Source: Balanoglossus misakiensis
Taxonomy: Eukaryota; Animalia; Hemichordata
NCBI GenBank assembly: GCA_040954595.2
Contig: CM082576.2
Location: 18,399,028 to 18,463,027, forward strand
Reading direction: 5' to 3'
DNA length: 64,000 nt
This document shows positions 2,565 through 28,454 of this stretch, in pieces. The notes beneath the pieces were generated by a model. That model worked only from the letters and a program-made list of their open reading frames with translations, was not told the origin of the DNA and searched no databases. Each line of letters starts with the position of its first letter. Position 1 is the stretch's first letter. A program made the position numbers and the translations under genes.

Positions 2565-4019
2565 CTGACACATGTGTTGCCGGATCCTCATTACATCTGT
2601 GTTCTCCAATGACTTTAGTGGTCTGTAGTTTTCAGGTGTAGGTCCTGGCTTTTTGGGTGTCTTTTTGTCTTTGCGGTAGTCAAGGTGTGTGACTACAACT
2701 GGCTCAGATTCCTTTCTTGGCCTTGACCATTCACACATGTTGTCAGTTCCAACAGACGTATGCCTATCTACTCTCCTATCATTAAAGTCTGCCACAGCAA
2801 ACATCAAACAGATCACATGTTTGCAAGACCCATCATCACTGAAATACAAGAAAATATCATAAATATGTCATCTACACATTAAAAAACAACATGTCAATAC
2901 AATTCACAATCTGAATATACACGAAGAACCTGTTCTTGACAGCTTTATCCAATCCATATCCCATCCCTATTACCATGTGGTGGCGCCCTTTTCGCATTTG
3001 CCAACCACCCAAAAATCTGGTATTGGATTCGTTTGATTTTTCCATGGTAACATTGGTTAATTTAGGCATTATAGGTGACCATATAGCTCAAAATACTGTG
3101 AGTACATGTACATGTACATGTACATAGCTACAAACTAGGCTCGGACATGGACAAGTCGTAACCGGCTCGGTGTAGCGTAAACAATAACACAGTGGATCGA
3201 TCAATCAGGAAGTGCACATTTTTAGCATCGATATTCAAACATAAGACCGGAAAATAAATCGATAGTAATTAGAGCTCTTTTTAAATACGTCCGAAAAGGG
3301 TTAACTGTTTAGTCAGATCTTACGACTTCTGTCAAATCCAGCATCACCGAGAAGTTTGCATACCGTGGCCGAGCGAGCGAGCCACATTGAAACAAACTGA
3401 TTACATGTATTTATTGAGCAGGCAAGTACATTTCCGTCGCGAAAAGAAAATATACACAAATCACAAAGTAATATACTTACGCTGCTACACATCCACAGCC
3501 TGCGGAAAGCACCTCTGCTTTCTTAGTCAGCAGTATCCAAGTTTCGTAACGATCGGCTGCTTGTCTCTGCTCTGGTTTGACTTGCCCTTTGATGAACATG
3601 AAGTCTGGGCAATTTTCAATCGACCCAAGACTCAAACTTTCAACATGATCGTCCTTGTACATCAAAAAACCATCATCTGAACGATAATTACTCAATCTTT
3701 TTGGAGTCCATTCACAATGAGACACAATATATGCGAACACATCGCCTAACGTTAACAAAGGCATACTACGCAGGTCTCGGCGCCAGACGACTGCCGCTCC
3801 GTATACATCTACAACTTTACCGTCATCGTCAACAACACGTCTTCGTTTTCGTTCAGCTTTGTCATGGTCACATTTCTCAATGACATCGTATCTAATATCT
3901 GCCTTACTTGCTAACTCAACCAATTCTTGTTTGTTTTTTCTTCCACATGAGGGAATACCTCTCTCTCTTAAAAATTTTTTCAACTCATCAACACGCATCT
4001 TCCGAAACCTGTCGGCCAT
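2565..4019 (-). pseudogene. ISL2EU second gene, N-terminal part (SAP-like + SWIM zinc finger). Exons 4019-3481 and 2838-2565; downstream YqaJ exons degenerate
   Basis: MRVDELKKFLRERGI...NKQELVELA (SAP-like). A GT-AG splice restores the SWIM motif CGCVAA|DDGSCKH. Convergent with the transposase at 1-795. Confidence 0.75.
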
Positions 4020-4076
4020 TTTGAAAAAGTGTCGACCGCTAGACACTTTTCATACTAACCTAGGGGGTCAGAATTC

Positions 4077-4453
4077 TAACTTAATATTTAAAGCCTTATC
4101 ACTTCGCTCAAGGATATGCCTATTGTTATAGGATTGGGTCGAAGTTCTGGGTGGCGTGTCCATGGCGAAGCACGTGACTCGTTCATAGAGGGTGGGCGGG
4201 TGGGTTATAGTTTTCTTATCGGAAACCGCATAACTTTCCCTATCAATTCCGCCATATGTGTCCTTGACTCGGCCTGTTGCAAATGAGGGAGAAAGTCCGG
4301 CTGCATTGTTACCTATTTATACCCCACAAATTTGCATATTGCGGATCCATATCACTCAGTGATGCGGCTTTGAATAACTTAATATTTAAAGCCTTATCAC
4401 TTCGCTCAAGGATATGCCTATTGTTATAGGATTGGGTCGAAGTTCTGGGTGGC
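4077..4453 (-). repeat. 3' terminal block B1-A2-spacer-B2 of element 1
   Basis: 79-bp B at 4077-4155 and 4375-4453. 103-bp A at 4274-4376 matches 10071-10173. Confidence 0.93.
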
Positions 4454-4777
4454 TCTCCTGGCGTGAACACCATGCCTCATACATACGTACCCGCCTCCTT
4501 AAATCTGATATATCAGAACATATCATGCACATGCCCATTCCAAATCCTAACCCCCCATACCCCACACCCATTTCACAATTCTACTCCCCTATCCTACATA
4601 CATGTACGCACACAAAAGAGATACACATGTATTTTGCCTGAAGACTTATTTATTGCATATGTCATTTCAACAATAGGTTACACAAGGAGAACGTCTGAAA
4701 CCCTACCTCTCTATCTTATTTGCTTATCGGAGAAAGGTAGTTTTCTGGACTCGCGCTACACAATGCGGATATACTAA

Positions 4778-6058
4778 TTAATGACTACTGGGAAAGGCCT
4801 TAGAGAAGCCCACCAGGTCGTTCATATATTGATAAGCCTCTGCTTTCTGGTCTAAATTATCCACTATAGCCATTAAGCTATCTGCTATGGCTCCAACTTG
4901 AGTTACTTTTGCTAGTTGCATATAATAGTTGGCTGTCTCTTCTGCCCGCCAACCCACATGGCTCATTAGCGCATGAAGGTCATTACCCTCCATAGCCAGG
5001 GAAATAGCGCAAGCACTTCTGCAGCCATGAGGAGTTTCACCTGCATCTATCCCTACTTTTTGTAAGTAGGTTTTTAGTCGGGAATACGCCAATTGAGATG
5101 AGAAAGGTTTTTGATCCGTAGAGCCATGTGAATTGATTGGCCGGAAGAGATAACCCGTTGACAAATCGATTCCAACACTCTGCGCCAGCTTGAAATAAGC
5201 TTCGACGGTGTTAACTGGACATACGAAGGGATCGGCGCATCGCTTAATTGCAAATACATTAGTAGACGAGCCTCTCAAGGTTTTTCCAAAAGTATGATTG
5301 AATAATAATCCAGAGTTATCGGGAAAACGCATAATTTCCTGAGTCTTGACATGACCTAGGTCATGTGCCCTGTCCCCTGAAAAGGATAACATCTTAAAAT
5401 ATGCGAGATCCCTTGCCAATACGTACATGCGAGCTGGTGCGGTAGATGACACCATCTGATTAAGTATATGCTCAAAAACCAGCTTCAATTTATTTATAAA
5501 AAGGGGTGTGGCCTGTTTTGCTGTTATCATGGCTCTTGCTTGTTCTTCTGCTATTTTCTTTAAGTATCTAGCGACCAAAGGCGATTCTACCGGGTTAGGC
5601 CTATCTAAACCGACCTGTGAGGAAAAGGCTTGATAGAATGTTTTCAATTTTGAAACCATATTCTTAGCTGTGGTAACACGAATTCTCTTAGGGCATTGGC
5701 ATTGTTGATATCCAGGGAGACCTAAATAGGGACAGATTATTGCGTGTACTTGTGTTTTAGCATCCTTGTCCTTATAAATGAGAAACCGAACTATATCTTG
5801 TGCTGATGCCATCAATAATGATTTTGGTTCATCCAACCCTGTTAGGAAAGCTTCGAATTGTTGGATTAAACGATCCTTTTGTATGTCGTGTGCCGACCGA
5901 TTACCCAGCACTTCCTTCATTCTACTGTCGATGGCTTCAAGATTAAGTGTGCTACCACTATCATGGATGGGCTGCTGTGGCTGTAGGGGCACTTTTGTGC
6001 CACACGCCTTGCATCGTTGGGAAGCACCATTGGTCGTACCACACATCCAACATGCTTG
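4778..6058 (-). CDS. Tyrosine recombinase with N-terminal zinc ribbon
   Basis: CWMC...CKAC, then catalytic SGDRAHDL (R), HGCRS (HxxR), HVGW and ANYY (Y). Splice acceptor at 6059/6058. Confidence 0.92.
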   Translation of the reverse strand, partial: QACWMCGTTNGASQRCKACGTKVPLQPQQPIHDSGSTLNLEAIDSRMKEVLGNRSAHDIQKDRLIQQFEAFLTGLDEPKSLLMASAQDIVRFLIYKDKDAKTQVHAIICPYLGLPGYQQCQCPKRIRVTTAKNMVSKLKTFYQAFSSQVGLDRPNPVESPLVARYLKKIAEEQARAMITAKQATPLFINKLKLVFEHILNQMVSSTAPARMYVLARDLAYFKMLSFSGDRAHDLGHVKTQEIMRFPDNSGLLFNHTFGKTLRGSSTNVFAIKRCADPFVCPVNTVEAYFKLAQSVGIDLSTGYLFRPINSHGSTDQKPFSSQLAYSRLKTYLQKVGIDAGETPHGCRSACAISLAMEGNDLHALMSHVGWRAEETANYYMQLAKVTQVGAIADSLMAIVDNLDQKAEAYQYMNDLVGFSKAFPSSH

Positions 6059-6232
6059 CTGTGTGAGGAAATGAACATTAATATAATTACCAAATCAAGA
6101 GGTTTTTCTTTTTCTTTTCCTTATTGTTGCTGTTATTCTGTTGTTGTCGTTATTTTTCGTCTTTTCTACTTCTCATATTGGGCTAAAATGTCATACATCC
6201 TGACTCGAGCGCAGTGTACACCCATTGTGTTC

Positions 6233-8410
6233 TCACTCATGACGTACCAATTTAACAGCGAACAGTGCACACGGAGCTCTACATGGCTTATACCCCTCTC
6301 GTGAGGGCGCTAGGATTACTCCCATGTCACCCTCCTCAGCCAGTTTTACGAATTTTGACGCTGACTGCCGGATCTCCGGCCAATACGAGGGGTAAGCGCA
6401 GCGTTTATGGACGATGATGGTAGCATTCAAATGCATTTGCCTAACGTGTTTAATGACGGCATGCGTGAGATGGAAAGGCGGATACACGTAAATTCTATCC
6501 CTTGGCGAGAAGTGATAGTGGAAAAAATTTACCCCAGCACTATCGGCCTGTGGAAATGGGGACACAAAACTCTCGAGTCTGGCGTTCGATGACGTGGCCA
6601 TAGCGTCAATAGAGTGGGGGCCACACTCCTTCTGCACTATAGCCCATGCTCTATCTGACAATTTCGCGTGGCACATGTCTAACTCTCTAGAGGCAAAATC
6701 GGCTAGATTCTGGTGTGAGCGGACGTGAGCAATTGTTAGGCGGGTATTATGGGTAACACAGAAGTGGAAAATTTTCTTTAGCAATTCATTTAACTGCACA
6801 GATTTAGATCCCGGGTACCCCTGGTTCCAGGCATGCACAAGGATTAATGAGTCTGACAAAACGTCGAGACGAGAATTTGAAACTTCTTGGCTAAATGCCG
6901 TGAGGGCTCTACAAAGAGCTTCAGTTTCTTTATCGATAATCGACTTTTTTTGCCATTCCTCCTCCCAACCATCACTTACGGTAACTGCTTTTTCCAAATG
7001 TGGCTGAAACACCGCCCCCCATTTATATGAACTGGCATCAGTGTACATTTTCAGTATAACGTGAGTTTCGTCTGGCCACCTAAAAGTCCCTGCTGTCTCG
7101 ACAATTTCCAACCATTGGCTGAGTTCGCGTCTGAGAGGGCCTTTAATCTGAACAAGGCTTCGTGCTGACACTTGCGCACTGGCCAGTGCGCGAGCCATTC
7201 GTCGTATATACAGCCTAGCGCACGGAATCGCGAGGGAGAACGAGATACACTTTCCCATTATTTTTTGCAATTCTGTGACCAGGATTGCAGATCGTAATAA
7301 GGCGTATCTAACCAACTCTACAAAACGTGCCTTCTTTAAATCTGGTATACTGAAGGCCCGCTGGACGGAATCTACCGTCATACCCAGGAGGACCAAGGAT
7401 TGGACTGGCGAAAGTACACTTTTTTCCAGGGCTATAAAGTAACCTGCGTCAATACATAATTTTAACAAGATGTAGGCAGATGCTTCGGTCAGCTCGAGGC
7501 TCGTCCAGTGGCTCGCATTTAAGCGGAAGGCCCCTGCAATTCTCAAAGGCCCCCCATGCCTGTCATCTATATATTGCAAGCATGGAACACCGAGCATACG
7601 CGCGTGACTAGTTATTGTGTACCCTAACGTATGATAAATGTATGCTGAAGATTTCCAACCAAACGGCAATGTGTTATTAACAAACCAGTATCCGGCCCAC
7701 TGGAAACCAAAATATGTGCGATCCTCCTCTCTGATAAACACATGATCATACCCACTTTTGTCATCTGATTTAAAATGATAATCATACTGGTTCAGATAAC
7801 GTGAAACTTCTATTAGTTTATCTAGTTTAAAGGGTTTATCTACCATCCACAGATTAAGGTACCTCATGTCGATACACATCCGGGGCTTTTTAGGCTCTAT
7901 TGTGATAGGCATCACAATATGCGGTGGAGGATCAATTCCGACCAAACCTACAGCTGATATCGCCCCGGTTTTAATTTTTTCATTAATCGTACTTGATATA
8001 AAATCTATAAATTGTTGACAAGCTGGGGCATTTGCAAAGACCTTTGCAGGAGGGGTAGGAGTGTCGTAGAAAACTCCCTTAAATGTTCCCTTAAACGGCT
8101 GAAAATATTCAGTCACGTTAGCCCCTTCCCTAATCCAATTCATAATTTGAGCCTGATTACTAGTGTCATGAGCCATTTGCCGCCATATCGCCTGGTGTCT
8201 GTGTACTTCCCCAGCTATGAAGTCGTGAGGGTTTCGGAACTGGAGGAGGCTGGGAGATGCCTTGCACAAACCGGCTGCCACTTCATGTGGGTCCGGGGAC
8301 TGAGCACTTCGGTCCTGTTGAGGGACTCCCTCAAGTGTTACCCATGCGTAAGTAGAACGTCTAACTGGCCAAAGTTCAGAAGAGAATTTTTCCCAGGGCT
8401 GTGGTACCCC
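6233..8410 (-). CDS. pol: reverse transcriptase + RNase H + N6-adenine methyltransferase-like domain
   Basis: DDKSGYDH, LPFGW, YIDD (RT). YTDAS, LSDS, NLADFASR (RNase H). IDAMA...N and YVYPPF (MT-like). The ORF is uninterrupted; its 5' extension runs through a poly(A) tract and is probably non-coding. Confidence 0.93.
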   Translation of the reverse strand, partial: GVPQPWEKFSSELWPVRRSTYAWVTLEGVPQQDRSAQSPDPHEVAAGLCKASPSLLQFRNPHDFIAGEVHRHQAIWRQMAHDTSNQAQIMNWIREGANVTEYFQPFKGTFKGVFYDTPTPPAKVFANAPACQQFIDFISSTINEKIKTGAISAVGLVGIDPPPHIVMPITIEPKKPRMCIDMRYLNLWMVDKPFKLDKLIEVSRYLNQYDYHFKSDDKSGYDHVFIREEDRTYFGFQWAGYWFVNNTLPFGWKSSAYIYHTLGYTITSHARMLGVPCLQYIDDRHGGPLRIAGAFRLNASHWTSLELTEASAYILLKLCIDAGYFIALEKSVLSPVQSLVLLGMTVDSVQRAFSIPDLKKARFVELVRYALLRSAILVTELQKIMGKCISFSLAIPCARLYIRRMARALASAQVSARSLVQIKGPLRRELSQWLEIVETAGTFRWPDETHVILKMYTDASSYKWGAVFQPHLEKAVTVSDGWEEEWQKKSIIDKETEALCRALTAFSQEVSNSRLDVLSDSLILVHAWNQGYPGSKSVQLNELLKKIFHFCVTHNTRLTIAHVRSHQNLADFASRELDMCHAKLSDRAWAIVQKECGPHSIDAMATSSNARLESFVSPFPQADSAGVNFFHYHFSPRDRIYVYPPFHLTHAVIKHVRQMHLNATIIVHKRCAYPSYWPEIRQSASKFVKLAEEGDMGVILAPSREGYKPCRAPCALFAVKLVRHE

Positions 8411-8769
8411 CTGTAAGACAATTAACAAGGTATGTATGAGAAAAGAGATCAGCCCGAAACCTACAGTTTTCTCTTTTTTTTTTTTTTTTTTTTTTTGGCT
8501 CGAGGGAATCCCTAGACAGGACCTCGCAAACGCAAGGTTGCAAAATGCAAAGGGCCACATGGGCCTTCCCTGTGTGCGGGATATAACGGTAATGCAAAAT
8601 GGCAAAGCATGCATGGAGAAATCGGGAACAGGGACAAGGGGGGAAAAGAAACACAATCTACAGTTATTCCTCTCGAACGAAATCTTTAATATAGATACTC
8701 AAATGAATTACATATCAGTGTGTGAACCATGAAAAGAGCGTGCCACGCAAATCACAAAGTCCGTGTAAT

Positions 8770-10050
8770 CTAAGACTTCTTTTTAGTAGGGCAAGCTCTG
8801 GCCATATGGCCAGCTTCTCCACATGCATAGCAGGTAATGTTATTAACATTCCTTCTCTGTCGGTTGTATGGCTCATATCGTTGACTCTGGGGGTGACGCG
8901 GCGAGTGTCGCAAAAACTTGGTAACTTTCGCCGCGATCTCTTCCTCCTCCTTGTTCCCTAGGAGTAACACCAACAGACGCCCTGCATCCTTTCCAAATTC
9001 GTTGGATTCGAACTGCGCCAGGACAGCTCTAAATCTAGATAACTTGGGGTGGGCGGCTACAGTAGCCCTATCCACCAGCGCCCGCAAAGCAGTAATTAGC
9101 TGTTGACGAGTTGACAGTGCGGGTGTGTGAGCCATTTCCATAACTTTTGTTAAAGCATCATCTACAGACGCAGTCTCTGCTATATCCTGCAGTCGTTTCA
9201 CCTGCCGTTTGAGTGCTTCTAACTCGCTCGCCTGAAACCAAGCACAGTACATGGTATTATTGCTGATATAGTTCAAGCTTATGAACGTAATTCTTACTCG
9301 TTTTGTGCAAGCCACCGCATACAGTATCAATCCATTGATACCCCTGAAGCACCCATCACTCGTCACTGGGTTCCTGCCTAACCAATCACATCAGGCCACC
9401 CTCGCAGGCACTCGCCTACCTGGGCCTTAAACTATCGGCACCCTCGCAGCGACCCCGGGTTACTGCCTGGCCGATCTCATGGCCACCCTCGCAGGCGTTC
9501 AGCCTACCTGGGCCACGCTCAACATAAACGTGTATGACATACGAAAACATAGGGTACATGACTAAAACGTATCGAGAGAGAGAGTGAAAGAGAGAGCAAA
9601 AGTGAGAAAGAGAACGCAAGATACGCACCTGTCGCTCATACCATATCGACAGGCACACACACCTGCAGAGGAGCTGGGGGAAACAGCCAGCAACCATAAA
9701 AACTACCTAGGACGGAAAACAGCGTGGAACACACGAACACACCGCGAAGAATGAGAGAGAGAGAGGGAGAGCGAGCGAGAGAAACAACGGAAAGAAGCAC
9801 GTTACCAGCCACGCACCAACGCAGAAACCACGTAATCGAAACAGGAGCTCACCTGGCTGGTATCCTTTTTTGTGACTGGTTGGGGCTCTCCTCTAGCTGT
9901 CGCACTAATCGCAGGACCAGTAGCAGGCTGCGGATTTCCACCGTGTAACGCAGCAGCAGGAGGCGGCTGTGGGGCCGTAGACGCCCGGGCTGGCCGGTGC
10001 TGTTCAACGAATGCCGTAGCGGCTGGTGCAGCTGGTTGCGACGAAGCCAT
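8770..10050 (-). CDS. gag-like protein with CCHC zinc knuckle; predicted exons 10050-9853 and 9231-8770
   Basis: CYACGEAGHMARAC. CAG|GTGAG donor and TTTCAG acceptor join in frame. Homologous to the gag at 25546-26076. Confidence 0.85.
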
Positions 10051-10070
10051 GATGTGTGTGCAACGTGTGA

Positions 10071-10173
10071 CTGTTGCAAATGAGGGAGAAAGTCCGGCTG
10101 CATTGTTACCTATTTATACCCCACAAATTTGCATATTGCGGATCCATATCACTCAGTGATGCGGCTTTGAATA
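10071..10173 (-). repeat. A1 terminal repeat of element 1
   Basis: Matches 4274-4376. Confidence 0.93.
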
Positions 10174-10188
10174 TTTCAGGCAGCGAGA

Positions 10189-10926
10189 ATTGATGAATTT
10201 CTTCTTACTTTGTGTCGTTTAAGGCAGGGTTTCTTTGAGCGTCACCTGGCATTTCTGTTTAACATTTCAATGTCAACTGTAAGCAGAATATTTATACCTT
10301 GGATAAATTACCTTTACTTGAAACTGGGTCACCTTAAAATTTGGCAAGACAAAGCCAGTATCACAAGAAACATGCCTGCATCATTTACAGTGAAGTACCC
10401 AAGTACCCGCATCATAATTGATTGTTCAGAAATTAGGGTGGAAATGCCCAGTTCATTGATTTTACATTCACAATTATTGTCTAATTACAAAAACCATGTA
10501 ACACTTAAGGGGCTAATAGGCATAGCTCCAAGTGGAGCTGTAACATTTGTCAGCAGTTTATATACTGGCTCCATATTTGACAGAGAAATTGAATGTAGAT
10601 CAGGGTTACTGGATATGCCATTTGACCACGGTGACTCTGTAATGGCAGACAAGGGATTCACCATAGCTGACCTCTTGAGGCCTAAAGGTGTGTCTCTGAA
10701 TATTCCACCATTTCTAGAGAAACGTGACCAAATGAGTGCAGAAGATGTTATAGAAACACAAAAAATTGCTGCTGAGCGCATACATGTAGAAAGGGCAATT
10801 AATAAAGTTAAGAATTTTCATATCTGGGACAGAGTTGTCCCTATATCACTTTTTAATATTGTAAATGAAATGTGGACTGTAAGTGCACTATTGTGTAATG
10901 TACAGAATCCTATAATAAGTGCATGA
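10189..10926 (+). CDS. Second ISL2EU-type DDE transposase, 5'-truncated
   Basis: IDEFLLTLCRLRQG, IIDCSE, SNYKNHVTLK, VMADKGF, RIHVERAI. The N-terminal part is missing. Confidence 0.88.
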   Translation: MDEFLLTLCRLRQGFFERHLAFLFNISMSTVSRIFIPWINYLYLKLGHLKIWQDKASITRNMPASFTVKYPSTRIIIDCSEIRVEMPSSLILHSQLLSNYKNHVTLKGLIGIAPSGAVTFVSSLYTGSIFDREIECRSGLLDMPFDHGDSVMADKGFTIADLLRPKGVSLNIPPFLEKRDQMSAEDVIETQKIAAERIHVERAINKVKNFHIWDRVVPISLFNIVNEMWTVSALLCNVQNPIISA

Positions 10927-11049: not shown

Positions 11050-13169
11050 TCAACTACATTTATCAACTACATTCAATAAAAATATGGTTAAGCACTTTGT
11101 TCTCTCGTCACGATAAATGGCATGTAATGTTCGGTAAAAAAAAACATCCAGTTTTGTCAACATTTCTTGCCAATATACACTGTCAAATATGATTCTCTCA
11201 ATGCTGAGCCCTTTAAATGTATATATAACAAAATCGCACCAAGTCAGCCCACACACTGCCATTTGTCCCTGAATTTGCTGATAATATCTGTGATAAACTT
11301 TCAACCTTGGCTGCCCATTGTCATCATAACAATAAAATGTTGGATCAAGGCATGCATCCAACGGAGTGACATTTTTCTTTGTTTCTGGGCATTTAACTTC
11401 TACAATACCATATGGCTCAGATGATTTTCTATCGACCACTTTCGAATCCGGTGTACCACCAAGAAAACAATACGAGGGGTTTATAACTAGACCACATTTG
11501 TGTAGAGATACATAATTATCTGTGTCATTCATGTATTTGGCATATTTTATCAAACCCTCACTTTCATATTTTTTGCCATGATCAGTATATCTGCTTGTAA
11601 AACTTTCAGAATTAAATAAGCTATTACACAGGGCATCGTGATTTCTTTTTACATACATCGTGAAAATTTGATGCAGTCAGCCTTGGTTTTCTATACAGAA
11701 ACCACTTATCACTGACAGACTGCTTTCTTGTCTCTGCTTCAATCATATTTGCTCTGTCTTTGTTACATTTGATTGATTGAAACCATGCATGTTCCTGTTC
11801 ATTGTTAATTTTAATGTCATATATAGGGGTTTCTTTGTATGGTAAATTAGGAAAAGAATTTAAATCTATTAACAAATTATAAGATGGCAGTCTTGGTACT
11901 GATGATATGTCACAAAAGACAGAATAACTACACTCTGTGTGTCGTGTTTGATAGCTTAAAATTGAGCCATTTGGCACTTTACCAAATTTGGTATCAACTA
12001 ATGATACATCAGGCATGACCTGGCACTGCGCAAACCCAAACAGTGGATTTTTTTGGTTCAGACTTTCTCTGAACTTTTTTTCAGCATTGTTGTCATGATT
12101 TGGATTTCTTCTGGCATCATACAATGCTGAAGTCACAGCATATTTTGACTCACCACTATCAACTTTAACTTTGCGAATGGCCAAACTTGTAACAGGTTCT
12201 GGCAAAACCCCCAAACCTCTGTTTCTATGGTGCCACACTTGTAATCTAGAGGTTGGAGAAGTAATGTTTGAGTGAATATTTACAAACTCTTGAACATCCT
12301 CTAAATCAAATAAAGAGCATTGTGAAATCAGAAATAATAATGCAAGGGTATGATTACAGTAGCCTACAAGTCCGGCTTTACAGGTACAGTTAGCATGTAC
12401 AACATTACCATCCAGAAGATCAAGCTTTAGTTTCAGTCTATGTGGCTCTGCATGTTTTTTGTAGCTATGGTTACACCTTGCTGTAAAATAAAAGTATTTT
12501 GTGTCTTTATTTGTCATAACATCATGGATATATTTTTCTTCAAAGAACACTGATTAGTTGGGTGATTATCCTCAGCATCCCCTTTTACTTGCTTCCCTGT
12601 TTTTGAGAGATGGATATTTATATGTGCTCTAGTGAACAAAGGCAATCCTAGCAACGACGTGCCCCACCCATCTTTTGGGTAAGAAGTGGACAGTCCAACA
12701 GGTGCTACAGGAGCTGACATGACATTTGCTGGAGTTTGGCCTGATGATAGTGCCTTCATTTTCTGTATCTTCATCTTAGTATAGCTTTTGTTTGGATCTG
12801 GATCAACAATTTTTGCATCAGTTCCATTTTCCATGTACACCTTTATTCTACAGAAAAAAACAAATGTTTCAATATTGTTATTTTAATAGTATTATTTGCA
12901 ATACATGCATTTTCATTTATTTGACCATAATTTATTATTATATTGTTTGATCAACAAAACCAAATGGAACACGTAAAAACAATTTACCCAGCCCCTACTT
13001 GCCTTGTCAACAACTGTGCCTTTGTTTTTAAGTTCTTCAGGGTGTCACCCCTACATCTTAACCAACATTGGAGCCTGTCCTTTTTCAGCGTTGCTGGATC
13101 AATACCATCAAAGCTGGCTCCTGGGATATCATCTTCGCTGAGAGATACATTACTGACGGTGACATCCAT
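11050..13169 (-). pseudogene. ISL2EU partner gene: SAP-like + SWIM + YqaJ (lambda exonuclease-like) domains, frameshifted
   Basis: LQCWLRCRG; CTCKAGLVGYCNH; ETRKQS..W..RKPRLTASNF; GGTPD, EVKCP, YYQQIQGQMAV. Split over several ORFs. Probable GC-AG intron 13002-12848. Confidence 0.85.
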
Positions 13170-22970: not shown

Positions 22971-23707
22971 GATACCCTAAAATTGGTGCTTGACACAGAA
23001 CATGTTTTAATTTCTCGAATGCATGTTCGCATCTATCATCTCATTCAAATTTCGTGTCCTTTCCCAACAATTTATGTATAGGCCTAGCAATGATCGAGAA
23101 ATTCTTTATAAACTTTCTAAAATAATTGGGCCAACCCAAAAATTATTTCAACTGTGTGACAGTATGAGGACGGGGATATTCTTTAACAACTGTTACTTTA
23201 CTCTTGTCAGCCGCAATTCCATCCTTACCAGTAGGACAAACCTCCAAATTTAGCGACTGCCTACAATATGTCTGCGCATGCTCACACCCTGTATTTGCAT
23301 ATACTGACGTCTCTGGCATGGAAATGCGGAAGTATTTGTCGAAGTTCGCTCTTGGATGTTATCGGCCTGCTTTTGATGTTATGTACATCGACTTTCGGGT
23401 ATTTTCGGTTTGAACTTGTACGTCACACCCTCCCTTCCAGCATGGTGTCGTGTAAACAGGGTAAGTAAAAAAATTCAGTCGAATTTCATGAAAATCGATG
23501 TCCGTGTGACCATTTGCCCGCCATGATTCGAATCGACATAACAAGCAATAGAACGTACCATATTTAAAGCCGCATCACTACGCGATATATATCCGCATAT
23601 GCTAATTTATTATGAATATTCATGAGAACCCGTATAAAAGTTAGCGAATATCCGCACATGGGCTCAGTACCATTCCTTAACCACGGAGGCAGCATATAGC
23701 AGAGAAG

Positions 23708-25347
23708 ATGGCTCAACCACCGGTACGGGTAAACCCGCCACCACCACCACCGGGCACAGAAGAGGCACAGCCGAGTGCAACCCAAGCTGTTGCAGCGTTC
23801 CTAGCTGCACACAGGCCTTCTACCAGCCAAAGTAGTAATGCCGGCTCCCAATCTCAGCAAACTCAGCAAAGGGCGACGAGCCGACCAGATATTCAAGTTC
23901 CGGGTCCGAGTCGTCAAGGGAACGCTCAAACGACCGCAGATAATGAGGTACATATAAATCCTATCTCGGGTACACCTTATTTATTGTTCATTCCGATGTC
24001 TAGATTTGTACGTTTCATTCGGCATGCCCCATTGCTTTGTTAACGGGTTGTTCTCGACGCCCATTATACTACAGCGTACACCTGTTGAATTCCTGCATGC
24101 CACCTGCCCCCAATGTGAATGTTTGTATCCTCATTGAATATGCATGGAGTGGAAAACCGTGACATGGCCCCACTGCCAGGTGCCTGTACATTTTCGATAG
24201 AACAATGCGGCCCAGTTTTATGAAATAGAGCATTGGGGCTCGGTTATTGACATAGAGCAGTGAAGCTCGGTTATTGAAATAGAGCAGTGAAGTTCGGTTA
24301 TCGAAATAGAGCAGTGAAGCTCGGTTATTGAAACAGAGCAGTGAAGCTCGGTTATAGAAATAGAGCAGTGGAGCTCGGTTATTGAAACAGAGCAGTGAAG
24401 CTCGGTTATAGAAATAGAGCAGTGGAGCTCGGTTATTGAAATAGAGCAGTGGAGCTCGGTTATTGAATTAGAGCAGTGAAGCTCGGTTATTGAAATAGAG
24501 CAGTGGAGCTCGGTTATTGAAACAGAGCAGTGAAGCTCGGTTATAGAAATAGAGCAGTGGAGCTCGGTTATTGAAATAGAGCAGTGGAGCTCGGTTATTG
24601 AATTAGAGCAGTGAAGCTCGGTTATTGAAACAGAGCAGTGAAGCTCGGTTATTGAAATAGAGCAGTGAAGCTCGGTTATAGAAATAGAGCAGTGGAGCTC
24701 GGTTATTGAAACAGAGCAGTGAAGCTCGGTTATTGAAATAGAGCAGTGGAGCTCGGTTATTGAAACAGAGCAGTGAAGCTCGGTTATAGAAATAGAGCAG
24801 TGGAGCTCGGTTATTGAAATAGAGCAGTGGAGCTCGGTTATTGAAATAGAGCAGTGGAGCTCGGTTATTGAAACAGAGCAGTGAAGCTCGGTTATAGAAA
24901 TAGAGCAGTGGAGCTCGGTTATAGAAATAGAGCAGTGGAGCTCGGTTATTGAAACAGAGCAGTGAAGCTCGGTTATAGAAATAGAGCAGTGGAGCTCGGT
25001 TATTGAAACAGAGCAGTGAAGCTCGGTTATAGAAATAGAGCAGTGGAGCTCGGTTATTGAAATAGAGCAGTGGAGCTCGGTTATTGAATTAGAGCAGTGA
25101 AGCTCGGTTATTGAAACAGAGCAGTGAAGTTCGGTTATCGAAATAGAGCAGTGGAGCTCGGTTATTGAAACAGAGCAGTGAAGCTCGGTTATAGAAATAG
25201 AGCAGTGGAGCTCGGTTATTGAAATAGAGCAGTGGAGCTCGGTTATTGAATTAGAGCAGTGAAGCTCGGTTATTGAAATAGAGCAGTGAAGCTCGGTTAT
25301 GAATTTAAAGCAGCGAGGCTTTGATTAGGAAACCTAGCAACGAGATT

Positions 25348-25379
<32 letters not shown>

Positions 25380-26076
25380 TGTATTTGTATACAAAATAAC
25401 AATAATGAAGCAATGAGGCTCATAATGAAATGAAGGTACGAGGCTCTGAAAGGAAGGAGAATTGATTTAAAATAATGTTAACCTTTGTACATGGGCGTTA
25501 GTGTTACTGTGATGTACTCATTACAAAACGATGATTGTATTGTAGGTGAAGGAACAGCTATTGGAGCTGAAACAGAAACTACTCTTATTGGAAAAGAATG
25601 CTGGGACAGCATCTGTCGAAGAGGCTTTACAAAAGCTAATGGAGATGGCCCACAATCCAGCAGTCGTATCCCGAACCCAACTACTTAATGCTTTGAGGGC
25701 ACTGGTCGACAGAGCGACAGCCACCGCACATCCAAAATTGCATCGTTTTCGATCGGTGCTCTCCCAGTTTGAATCTACCGATTTCGGGGAAGATGCGGGG
25801 AGATTAATTATTCTATTATTGGGAAATAAAGAAGAGGAAGAAATAGCTTCAAAAGTGTACAAGTTTATGAAACACTCTGGCTCATCTAATCAGTTCTCTC
25901 AATATGAATCGGGACGATATATGCCCTATCCACTTCGTACATCATATACCCGCACACCGTATTCTCCCTACTATAGAAGAGAGCAACCAAGAAATTCGGC
26001 TGGGAAATCCGGAATTAAATGCTTTGTATGTGCGAAGTTGGGGCACATTGCGAGGGACTGCCCCGACAAAAAATAA
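23708..26076 (+). CDS. gag-like protein; predicted exons 23708-23947 and 25546-26076
   Basis: P/Q/S-rich leader ending GAG|GTACAT, acceptor TTGTAG|GTG in frame, and CFVCAKLGHIARDC knuckle. Confidence 0.82.
24222..25300. repeat. 27-bp minisatellite, about 40 units, inside the gag intron
   Basis: Unit GAAATAGAGCAGTG(G/A)AGCTCGGTTAT(T/A), head-to-tail with no spacers. Confidence 0.95.
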
Positions 26077-26264
26077 TGTATTGATAATCGTATAACTTTT
26101 CCGATGATGCATTGAAATATTCAAAAAAATAAAAAAAATAATATGACTCTGTAATCTCAGTGTTTGTGTAGTTTATTTTCCTTTCCCTTCGGACAGGGGG
26201 GCTAACAATAACAGCCCTATGCCTTTAAAAGCAACCTGCCTTCGCAGGGTCCTGTCTGGGGGTC

Positions 26265-26313
<49 letters not shown>

Positions 26314-26325
26314 TTGACCCCACAG

Positions 26326-27108
26326 TGGGAACTGAACTACCCCGTTCATCAAGCAAGTGGTGGACGTGTCTCGTATTCATGGGTATCATGGGAGGGCGCC
26401 CACAGACAGGAAGTGATGGGAGGGAATCCAGCTGTCGAAGAGTTCGCCTTTGGAGGAAGCCTGTCCCGCCCCCAAGAGTTAAATTATAGAAATGCAGCGG
26501 AATTTAAGGCTGGTGAAGTCCATCAACATCTTCAAGAATGGGATTGCATCACAAATGGGCTAGACAACAAAGACTTAGTTATGTCCTGGTTGCGGGAGAA
26601 GGTCAAAATCTCGGATTACACTCGTCACTTTTTCGGGACAATTTAAAGGAGTCGAATACGATCACGATACACCCCCTCACAAGTTATTTTACAACAACCC
26701 GAATTGTAGTAAATTTGGAGAATTTATTGCTAATACCCTGCAAGATAGAATCAAGTCTGGAGCCATTTCGGTGTGGGGCAGAGTAGGGTGTGCCCCTCCC
26801 CCTCATATAGTTATGCCCATCACAATTGAACCCCAAAAGCCTCGTCTATGTATCGATATGAGATTTCTCAACCTTTGGATGAAGGACATGCCTTTTAAAT
26901 TGGATAAGCTGATAGAAGTTTCAAAATACCTGCAATCGTGTGATTATCAACTAAAATGCGATGACAAGAGCGGATACGATCACATCCTATTGGCAGAGGA
27001 CGAAAGACGTTACGTTGGTTTTCCAGTGGGCGGGATCCTGGTATGTGAACAACACTCTACCGTTTGGATGGAAATTATCCGCCTTCATATACCAGAACGT
27101 GGGATAGT
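26326..27108 (+). pseudogene. pol N-terminal/RT fragment of element 2 (frameshifted, truncated)
   Basis: FKAGEVH, PHIVMPITIEPQKPRLCIDMR and DDKSGYDH match element 1 pol. Frameshifts near 26641 and 27020. Confidence 0.88.
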
Positions 27109-27109
27109 G

Positions 27110-27532
27110 TAAAAAGAAAAAAATAACATCACATTTGCGGAAAGGATTGGGGTAAACTTGCGCAGAGGTCATCTATTTCGGCCAACAACCCCGAGCGGTG
27201 AAGTCGAGCAACGCCCTCTATCATCCCAAACAGCGTACAGTCGCCTCAAATTGTACCTACAGGAGCTAAACATGGATAGAGGGAAAACACCACACAGTCT
27301 CAGAAGCGCATGTGCGATCACATTATCCTTGGCGGGGGTGGAGTTGAGTGAGCTTATGCGTCACATAGGTTGGCGTTCAGAAGATACAGCCAATCATTAC
27401 ACCAAACTATCTTCTGTGTCAGCGGCCCAAGGACCAGCCCAGAAGTTAAAAGAGGTGACTGATGCAGGAGAGATCCTGACGCGAAACTACGAACAGGCGA
27501 ATGATCTAACAGACTTCACTATGGCATTCTAA
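27110..27532 (+). pseudogene. YR C-terminal fragment of element 2
   Basis: GHLFRP, TPHSLRSACAITL, HIGW, ANHY. Joined directly to RT by a large deletion. Confidence 0.88.
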
Positions 27533-28454
27533 ACCAGTCCGCTCCTTAATGGCACAATAACCTAATTTACAGATGTATGGGGCTTGATTTCTGTACATAA
27601 TCGTAGCAAGAATAAAGTTCATATTTTAAAATTGACACGTGCTTTCATATATATTATGGGTGTAGGAGTGGGTGTGTATGGGTATTGAAGGATTGGGTGG
27701 GAAATAGGAAAAGTTGTGCATCCATAAAGCAGGGAGTTTCGCATAACATAACATAAAACCCGGACCCACTCCTATAACAATAGGCATATTCTAGAGCGGA
27801 GTTATAAGGCTTTAAATATTATAGTATTTAAAGCCGCATCACTACGCGATATATATCCGCATATGCTAATTTATTATGAATATTCATGAGAACCCGTATA
27901 AAAGTTAGCGAATATCCGCACATGGGCTCAGTACCATTCCTTAACCACAGGAGGCAGCAGTTAGAGCAGATAAGGTAGAAGGTTAGGGCATACAAGTGGC
28001 GGGCGGGTGGGGGTTTATGTGTACCGATGAGCGATTTGGGAGTTTTGCCCACCCTCCCACCCTTCAGCAACCCCGCTCTGGAATTTGGCCAACATAACAT
28101 CAAAACCCGGACCCACTCCTATAACAATAGGCATATTCTAGAGCGGAGTTATAAGGCTTTAAATATTATAGGTTTAAAAACCATCGATCTGAACCTTCTA
28201 TACCTAGTTTAAGTCATGTTGAATGAAACAATGTCTTCAAACAGCAGATTATCTAATGGGGGACAATGGAGGACGGTTTTTGCGAATGGTTTGCTCACTT
28301 CCGGTGTGCTAGATTTGTCAAAGCGCGTTTTCACGTGTACGGGTATAGGTACATGCATGTACCTATTTCAATTGAACTTGTTTTCCAATGTTTTGAAAGG
28401 ATCGGGTAGGTGACGTTGCTTTCTGAACCGTGCCTCTTTCTTCCCCAACAGGTC

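Follow-up and report, generated by a model that had tools for sequence, protein, structure and literature searches.

How does a retrotransposon that encodes its own tyrosine recombinase (YR) join its DNA to a chromosome, and which nucleotides does the enzyme act on? A 64,000-nt stretch of Balanoglossus misakiensis DNA (contig CM082576.2; hereafter the window) contains two such elements, element 1 on the minus strand and element 2 on the plus strand, and in both of them the place where the internal repeats B1 and A2 meet is a palindrome made of two 11-bp arms around a 6-bp spacer. Sequence comparisons make it highly probable that this palindrome is the predicted recombination site of the YR that the element encodes. 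We also consider it probable that only the antisense strand is exchanged during insertion, whether the donor is a duplex or a folded strand. The complete account that we favor, in which the palindrome is the core site of the element's own ALOG-domain YR, acts as a duplex donor and is inserted through the antisense strand only, is put forward tentatively.

The two 28-mers lie at 4366–4393 and 27808–27835, as reported in an earlier sequence-only reading of this DNA. Read in the sense of the elements they are GGCTTTAAATA-TTAAGT-TATTCAAAGCC for site 1 and GGCTTTAAATA-TTATAG-TATTTAAAGCC for site 2; the B arms are identical and the A arms differ by 1 nt, which bears out the claim that the arms are conserved and the spacers differ. 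Site 1 consists of a B arm (4383–4393), a spacer (4377–4382) and an A arm (4366–4376), with 10 of 11 arm positions paired, and in site 2, whose spacer is at 27819–27824, all 11 are paired. The sequence-only reading had placed element 1 on the plus strand and had called the site of element 2 a perfect inverted repeat. Its site 1 sequence was right but the element reads on the minus strand, and the perfection belongs to the arms, as the site 2 spacer is not symmetric. Around site 1 the symmetry continues beyond 11 bp, forming an extended imperfect inverted repeat (4358–4401; z = -4.0 and -3.5 on the two strands) that would give a 19-bp stem with a 6-nt loop if folded. A palindrome of this kind is not rare by itself: the window holds four further 11-6-11 repeats that form 10 or more pairs, as well as an AT microsatellite. 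The non-random feature is its location: self-comparison of the window puts the A2/B1 meeting point inside the palindrome of element 1, and likewise in element 2. Allowing one mismatch at most, we counted 13 occurrences of the arm 11-mer against an expectation of 3.6; the exact copies number 8, four in each element.

Where do the ends of the inserted elements fall relative to this palindrome? In self-comparison, A1 (10071–10173) and A2 (4274–4376) of element 1 are identical over 103 bp, and B1 (4375–4463) and B2 (4077–4167) are 96.7% identical. Read on the minus strand, A1 is the 5′ end and starts at the A arm without a spacer, B1 (as delimited by the site, 4377–4463) terminates in the B arm and spacer, and B2, the 3′ end (4079–4167), retains the B arm (4085–4095) and the entire spacer (4079–4084). 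The TA at 4077–4078 is common with 10172–10173. Empty-site contigs, from runs X1 and X2 of one sample, join 4076 to 10172 with 2 letters that fit either side; the empty target, which may be a paralogous copy of a host repeat instead of an allele, carries a single TA, the first 2 bases of the target half-site. Closing the 6,095-bp insert end to end recreates exactly 4366–4393, confirming the proposal that the internal junction equals the predicted circle junction. Element 2 (23561–28178) has the same A1-B1-A2-B2 layout. Its A1 (23561–23707) begins exactly at the A arm and the preceding base mismatches the spacer, B1 and A2 occupy 27745–27824 and 27825–27974 by self-comparison, and B2, the 3′ end (28091–28171), retains the B arm and the entire spacer (28166–28171). 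The flank 3′ of this B2 matches the A arm at 8 of 11 positions, but mismatches it at the first two bases.

Is the symmetry a property of the family? Our survey gave 83 loci, drawing on the best 80 of 123 confirmed metagenome stretches and with 4 from genome contigs, and excluding L083, a 34-residue match, left 82. A motif-plus-fold scan was positive at 35 of these and negative at 21 with enough downstream DNA, the other 26 being too short; 8 of 300 control windows were positive. Manual sorting of the 56 assessable loci gave 35 full sites (30 scan positives, 4 whose arms contain gaps and L048, which carries a deletion of 6 nt), 4 half-sites that pass into flank, 3 uncertain junctions (L011, L041 and L079) and 14 loci with none. 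As several loci are the same insertion, statistics used one member per arm family (16 families). The core consensus is RATA-N6-TATY, with a near-invariant inner ATA/TAT (A16 T15 A16 / T15 A15 T16 across the 16 families). The outer arms vary between families but co-vary, forming 88 of 126 pairs versus 47.9 ± 5.4 after permutation (maximum 70). In 15 elements that could be located by their repeat ends, we anchored the right arm at the break and varied the spacer; mean pairing peaked at 8.3 of 11 for a length of 6, compared to 2.1–4.1 for the other lengths from 0 to 12, which are thereby ruled out, and to a background of 2.7; at least 9 of 11 pairs occurred at 0.016% of 12,474 background positions. 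The spacers are variable and end mostly in TAC (T 24, A 20 and C 22 of 29, a set that took in L046, later sorted as a half-site, and the uncertain L041). Sites are present on both sides of the midpoint root of the YR tree (a quick tree without bootstrap), in families whose YRs are 30–46% identical to that of element 1. The sequence-only reading had suggested such a survey and would have taken a lack of arm symmetry in other members as telling against a YR site; arms symmetric about a fixed 6-nt spacer were what we found. Scans of IMG/VR returned no relatives, and Rfam gave nothing but a chance snoRNA match far below threshold.

If the palindrome is a recombination site, which of its borders is used? 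The spacer is retained in 21 of 22 B ends with usable flank (18 at 6/6 and 3 at 5/6; binomial 1e-5 against 50:50). This count leaves out L011, whose register is unclear, L010, L059 and L070, which are contig ends, and L041 and L079, which have no reference; L046 and L048 served as each other's spacer reference, and excluding both gives 19 of 20. Six of the 21 spacer-keeping ends are first-B ends, which are possibly mis-assembled, and the 15 with a B1/B2 pair all keep the spacer. At the other end of the element the spacer is absent from all 8 A starts. The per-position matches there (1, 2, 1, 3, 2 and 5 of 8) suggest that about 1 base of homology may help insertion. In element 2 and L056, mismatches on both sides pin the break to the spacer/A-arm edge. 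After the break the target reads T15 A18 T16 T14 of 21 and shows no preference beyond these 4 bases; its likeness to the A arm is confined to the inner 4 bp (a TATT-like half-site). On the left side of the target we found no RATA or B-type arm (0–4 of 8 matches per position), and target spacers match the donor spacer at 1–4 of 6 positions. Two other footprints were considered and rejected: a 6-bp target duplication, as in lox-type homology, is ruled out by the 0 of 8 A starts that carry the spacer, and an overlap of 7 or 8 bp by the base after the spacer, which in 7 of 21 ends is not that of the arm. The term dif/lox-like, used in the sequence-only reading, is apt for the 11-6-11 geometry but not for the behavior, as the spacer is unmatched in the target and left at one end only.

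Does element 1 encode an enzyme that could act at this site? Its YR (422 aa; 4778–6046, minus strand) has an N-terminal CxxC..CxxC motif, read from the sequence and not typed as FCS, an ALOG domain (PF04852, E 6e-17) that matches the LSH3 structure 8P5Q (E 9e-9), and a PF00589 domain (E 1e-8), with catalytic R226, K255, H340, R343, H363/W366 and Y375. Across 48 YR homologues, K255 is invariant and R226, H340, R343, H363, W366 and Y375 are at least 90% conserved; named homologues are from a hemichordate, amphioxus and a clam. The top structural matches of the predicted model (pLDDT 87.6) are Cre-lox complexes (E 4e-12); XerA/H and lambda Int also rank among the best folds, Tn1549 integrase complexes are among the matches, and integron integrase is absent among the matches listed. 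The YR is apparently intact and Cre-like. Together, the family symmetry, the rejoined ends and the Cre-like fold with conserved catalytic residues support the earlier proposal of the junction as a candidate YR site.

How might the spacer come to lie at one end only? The 6-bp center of dif defines the positions of cutting, and YR cleavage, which falls at the edges of the central region, leaves a 3′-phosphotyrosine and a 5′-OH (PMC5357621). By this chemistry, the sense strand would be cut at the left border and the antisense strand at the right border. Since the break at the spacer/A-arm edge is the antisense position, we infer a homology-independent exchange of one strand. If the exchange depended on homology, both ends would carry the spacer, and unbiased segregation of a heteroduplex would divide it evenly between them, while one-strand exchange fits the ends, among which only the antisense-type product is seen. 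We propose that reverse transcription copies the internal B1/A2 joint into the double-stranded junction of a circular DNA copy, where each arm would be occupied by one YR monomer. The A-arm monomer would cleave the antisense strand at the edge of the spacer, leaving a 3′-phosphotyrosine on the A arm and a 5′-OH on the spacer, and its partner would cut the target next to the TATT-like half-site. A single strand pair would then be swapped with homology of at most about 1 nt, and the mismatch between donor and target spacers, together with the lack of a B-type arm in the target, would block the second exchange. Insertion, completed by host replication or repair, would yield target / A1 ... B2 + spacer / TATT-like target, without duplication. 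The outer pairing would serve to juxtapose the ends in RNA or cDNA.

Several observations weigh against this account. The 14 assessable loci that have no site include some on long branches and some with other DNA after the YR. The junction of L011 (4959–4986) can be read with a spacer of 4 nt (GGGATA-GGGA-TAACCC), as can its B2 end, and is either a variant or decayed. The B end of L017 lacks the spacer (2/6 match). In a comparison of contigs from two organisms, A and B, 2–6 contigs per run of organism B leave the element at the arm (4382/4383); flanks were pooled by position in this comparison, and pooled rows are indistinguishable from spacer-less B ends. Two single contigs of organism A were read as sibling spacers. 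Among the rows listed, contigs on the A-arm side of the junction leave at 4376 (3) or 4378 (1), with none at 4382. Two monomers would require neither pairing that reaches 40 nt nor the bulged arms of L001/L007/L014/L082, L070 and L076, and these features point to a folded-strand or RNA role. DIRS-1 cDNA in cells is described as single-stranded and mostly linear, and its circle junction could not be amplified (PMC7192593). Finally, a circle would carry two identical sites, and the exclusive use of the end joint is left unaccounted for.

Is the donor a duplex or a folded strand? In the alternative that survives best, although we consider it unlikely, a long hairpin formed by the junction in single-stranded antisense cDNA mimics an A-arm duplex in its stem, and the YR cuts at the stem/loop edge and transfers the strand to a duplex target, a logic akin to that of CTXphi and integrons except that the cut falls at the loop. 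Such a donor predicts the one-sided spacer directly, only the antisense strand being present. The two ends of the element are imperfect inverted repeats, with complementarity to about 40 nt per side (segments 12–20, 21–30 and 31–40 fall below the minimum of 300 own-sequence shuffles, and 41–70 does not), and this bulged pairing would suit folding, as would the mismatches of site 1, which are G.T on the antisense strand. However, antisense hairpins are not favored across the family: the sense strand folds better at 20 of 29 sites and in 11 of 16 families, and wobble pairs on the sense strand comprise 29 G.T versus 22 A.C. This lack of antisense bias in wobble pairs and folding is what a site acting as a duplex would show. 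In integron attC and CTX attP, one strand specifically folds and the crossover is in the stem at a distance from the loop; here there is no such bias and the break is at the loop edge. Moreover, a 6-nt loop has space for one monomer beside the cut, and the best folds are Cre, XerA/H and lambda Int, not an integron integrase, among the matches listed. That DIRS-1 cDNA is single-stranded antisense (PMC7192593) would fit folding; an extra base in one arm is found in difSL, a known duplex site (PMC5357621). A duplex core is favored over a folded donor, but the choice is not settled. A broader statement, that the YR exchanges antisense first-strand cDNA at a dif-like core, free of homology and into half-site targets, possibly from a single-stranded cDNA hairpin, seems to us slightly better than an even proposition.

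The accepted picture for DIRS-order elements is reciprocal recombination at a shared trinucleotide. Applied here, a short junction word would recombine with the same genomic word, the TA/TATT overlap would be cut on the sense strand, and the palindrome would have another job, such as RNA or cDNA end pairing, or primer or poly(A) control. Many copies do have TA to TATT at both ends, DIRS1-like elements have a 3-bp junction identical to the target (PMC3266345, PMC7192593), and the slight sense-strand folding bias and 40-nt pairing would suit RNA. We nevertheless find this explanation improbable, as only 10 of 21 ends match the arm at the first 3 target bases, and in 7 of 21 the joint base differs. 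Nor is there a dyad about TATT, whereas the one centered on the 6-nt spacer is sharply defined and constant in length, and the invariant inner ATA/TAT on both arms would be left unexplained. If the broader statement above is true, the reciprocal trinucleotide model would give way, for these elements, to antisense one-strand exchange.

A shade less probable again is a coupling of the Tn916 type, in which both strands are exchanged at the two spacer edges and the resulting 6-bp heteroduplexes are repaired with a strong antisense bias. Although this would suit a symmetric 11-6-11 site with unmatched spacers, could make L017 a rare opposite product and accords with the Tn1549 integrase complexes among the YR fold matches, unbiased segregation predicts 50:50 rather than 21/22, and we know of no repair bias of the kind needed. 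The targets also have no B-arm-like half (0–4 of 8 per position), and so no obvious second cleavage site. That the palindrome is a functionless product of chance is very improbable: despite the four unrelated repeats of similar quality in the window, the same place, spacer length and co-varying arms recur in families with YRs 30–46% identical, on both sides of the midpoint root.

How does antisense one-strand exchange compare with known systems? In the elements called SEs, the donor 6-bp spacer goes to attR and the 6 bp of the target to attL, a one-strand exchange inferred from double-stranded circles, and Tn554 behaves likewise (PMC10214605). Like these, our element has a 6-bp spacer enclosed by imperfect inverted repeats at the point where the circle (here a predicted one) closes, leaves a spacer at one fixed end, and has a YR. 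However, SEs and Tn554 are bacterial, have several recombinase genes and no reverse transcriptase (RT), copy out as DNA and take the spacer from the last host flank, whereas this element has one YR, gag and RT/RNase H, an RNA intermediate and a spacer set by the internal B1/A2 template. By analogy, it would work like SEs and Tn554, but it is no member of either. YR sites in general have arms of 11–13 bp around 6–8 bp, and Cryptons have short direct repeats (PMC3212892). With XerCD/dif and Cre/lox the element shares the 11-6-11 geometry, an A+T-rich inner arm, a break at the edge of the 6-bp center and a Cre-like fold (PMC5357621); unlike dif and lox, it has no spacer identity between partners, a half-site target and one edge in use. 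One strand-exchange pair also suffices for the IMEX phages VGJphi and CTXphi when the central region is without homology, from a duplex (VGJ) or folded (CTX) donor, and for the duplex VGJphi donor the second exchange is blocked by the missing homology (PMC5357621). VGJphi and CTXphi borrow host XerCD and need a full dif target, whereas our element encodes its YR and uses dispersed TATT-like half-sites. DIRS1-like elements have an internal copy of the circle junction and YR integration without duplication (PMC3266345, PMC7192593), but their published 3-bp NTT word is at both ends, in contrast to a 6-nt spacer between symmetric arms that is left at one end. The specificity of DIRS-order recombinases was described as experimentally unprobed as of PMC7192593. 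In the literature searched, no symmetric 6-bp-spacer site or one-sided footprint is described for PAT/ALOG elements; the founding descriptions and Repbase, which lie outside that literature, may mention terminal symmetry. Within that literature, a one-sided 6-nt footprint appears undescribed.

What would this mean for the enzyme? We can now name a candidate 28-bp substrate, a scissile bond predicted to lie on the antisense strand at the spacer/A-arm edge, a target consensus and an apparently intact, Cre-like enzyme, so that the integration chemistry is directly testable with oligonucleotides. It would be unusual for a single-subunit YR in animal chromatin to insert next to a 4-bp half-site with no homology between spacers. 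If true, the broader statement above would also reveal the site bound ancestrally by the domain from which plants made ALOG transcription factors, and the 16 natural enzyme/arm pairs would allow us to read how the ALOG domain sets specificity. We note that the outer arms of L047, L054, L057, L066, L076 and L080 contain CACTG/CAGTG, recalling the plant ALOG motif given as YACTGTW (PMC10927535). This sequence is absent from the outer arms of elements 1 and 2, and the likeness is a lead only.

The remaining genes of element 1, also on the minus strand, are a Gag-like open reading frame (ORF) bearing a CCHC zinc knuckle (8770–9366; PF00098, E 4e-7) and an open frame for RT, RNase H and a conserved methyltransferase (MT)-like tail (6233–8698; RVT_1 3e-6, RT_RNaseH 6e-4). 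The tail, about 150 aa after RNase H, has 16 invariant columns in 10 sequences; its Pfam match to Dam is weak (E 0.06–0.07, in 1 of 10 members), there was no match in PDB, and the pLDDT of a single-sequence model was only 40. To judge by these sequences, element 1 appears to be an echinoderm-form (Pat1) PAT-like element by the features listed in PMC4157794 and belongs to the ALOG-YR DIRS1-type retroposon class of Iyer and Aravind 2012 (PMC3537659). It has split direct repeats A1-B1-A2-B2 with the internal pair downstream of the YR, a Gag zinc finger, a YR on the same strand as RT/RNase H, and an ALOG domain plus N-terminal CxxC..CxxC in that YR. With element 1 the PAT-like and ALOG-YR class shares the order A1-ORFs-B1-A2-B2, the Gag knuckle, RT/RNase H, ALOG-YR and absence of target duplication (PMC4157794, PMC3537659), and probably the MT-like tail. 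Ngaro elements likewise have split direct repeats but no MT domain, and as element 1 keeps its weakly supported MT-like tail, we do not class it as Ngaro. Metazoan ALOG copies have been called fragmented, whereas element 1 has open frames and intact catalytic residues. In element 2 the coding region (25546–27532, plus strand) is decayed, with gag, part of RT and the 3′ third of the YR left and the middle deleted; these parts are 51%, 64% and 45% identical to element 1, respectively.

Several arrangements in the surveyed loci are also worth recording. At L005:3149, L027 (~2965), L040 (~1610), L044, L046:1118 and L064, the first B and spacer run directly into flank without A2-B2, through loss of A2-x-B2 by recombination, insertion via the internal site, or assembly short-cuts. 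In L009:1323–5579 and L001:9673–11158, the 5′ portion of a further copy comes after the junction (gag, with RT as well in L009), either a head-to-tail tandem or a mis-join via the A repeat. Animal-type ALOG-YR retrotransposons occur at L080, L081 and L082, in contigs filed as bacterial metagenome-assembled genomes, probably through host contamination. Organism B (runs X3, X4, X8 and X9) contains a relative ~94% alike to element 1, and many of its contigs share the B arm with other spacers.

Within the elements themselves, element 2 carries an array of more than 40 copies of a 27-bp unit (24086–25324) between its 5′ region and gag, and the 5′ leader of element 1 has an 83% direct repeat (9368–9426 / 9457–9514). 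Both elements have a long A-run just upstream of RT (8462–8504; 26271–26310), within a 76-nt stretch that is 80% alike, a possible frameshift or splice signal. Element 1 is inserted 6 bp before the likely splice acceptor (TTTCAG) of a DDE_Tnp_4 transposase frame and is flanked by a SAP-domain ORF on one side and YqaJ-type ORFs on the other (4077–4078 / 10172–10926; 3477–4049; 11050–12553). A short inverted repeat, TGAAAAAGTGTC ... GACACTTTTCA, lies in its left flank (4021–4052), just upstream of the SAP ORF, and a second DDE_Tnp_4 ORF is at 1–795. We take the flanking DDE_Tnp_4, SAP and YqaJ frames to be Harbinger/ISL2EU-like DNA transposon pieces.
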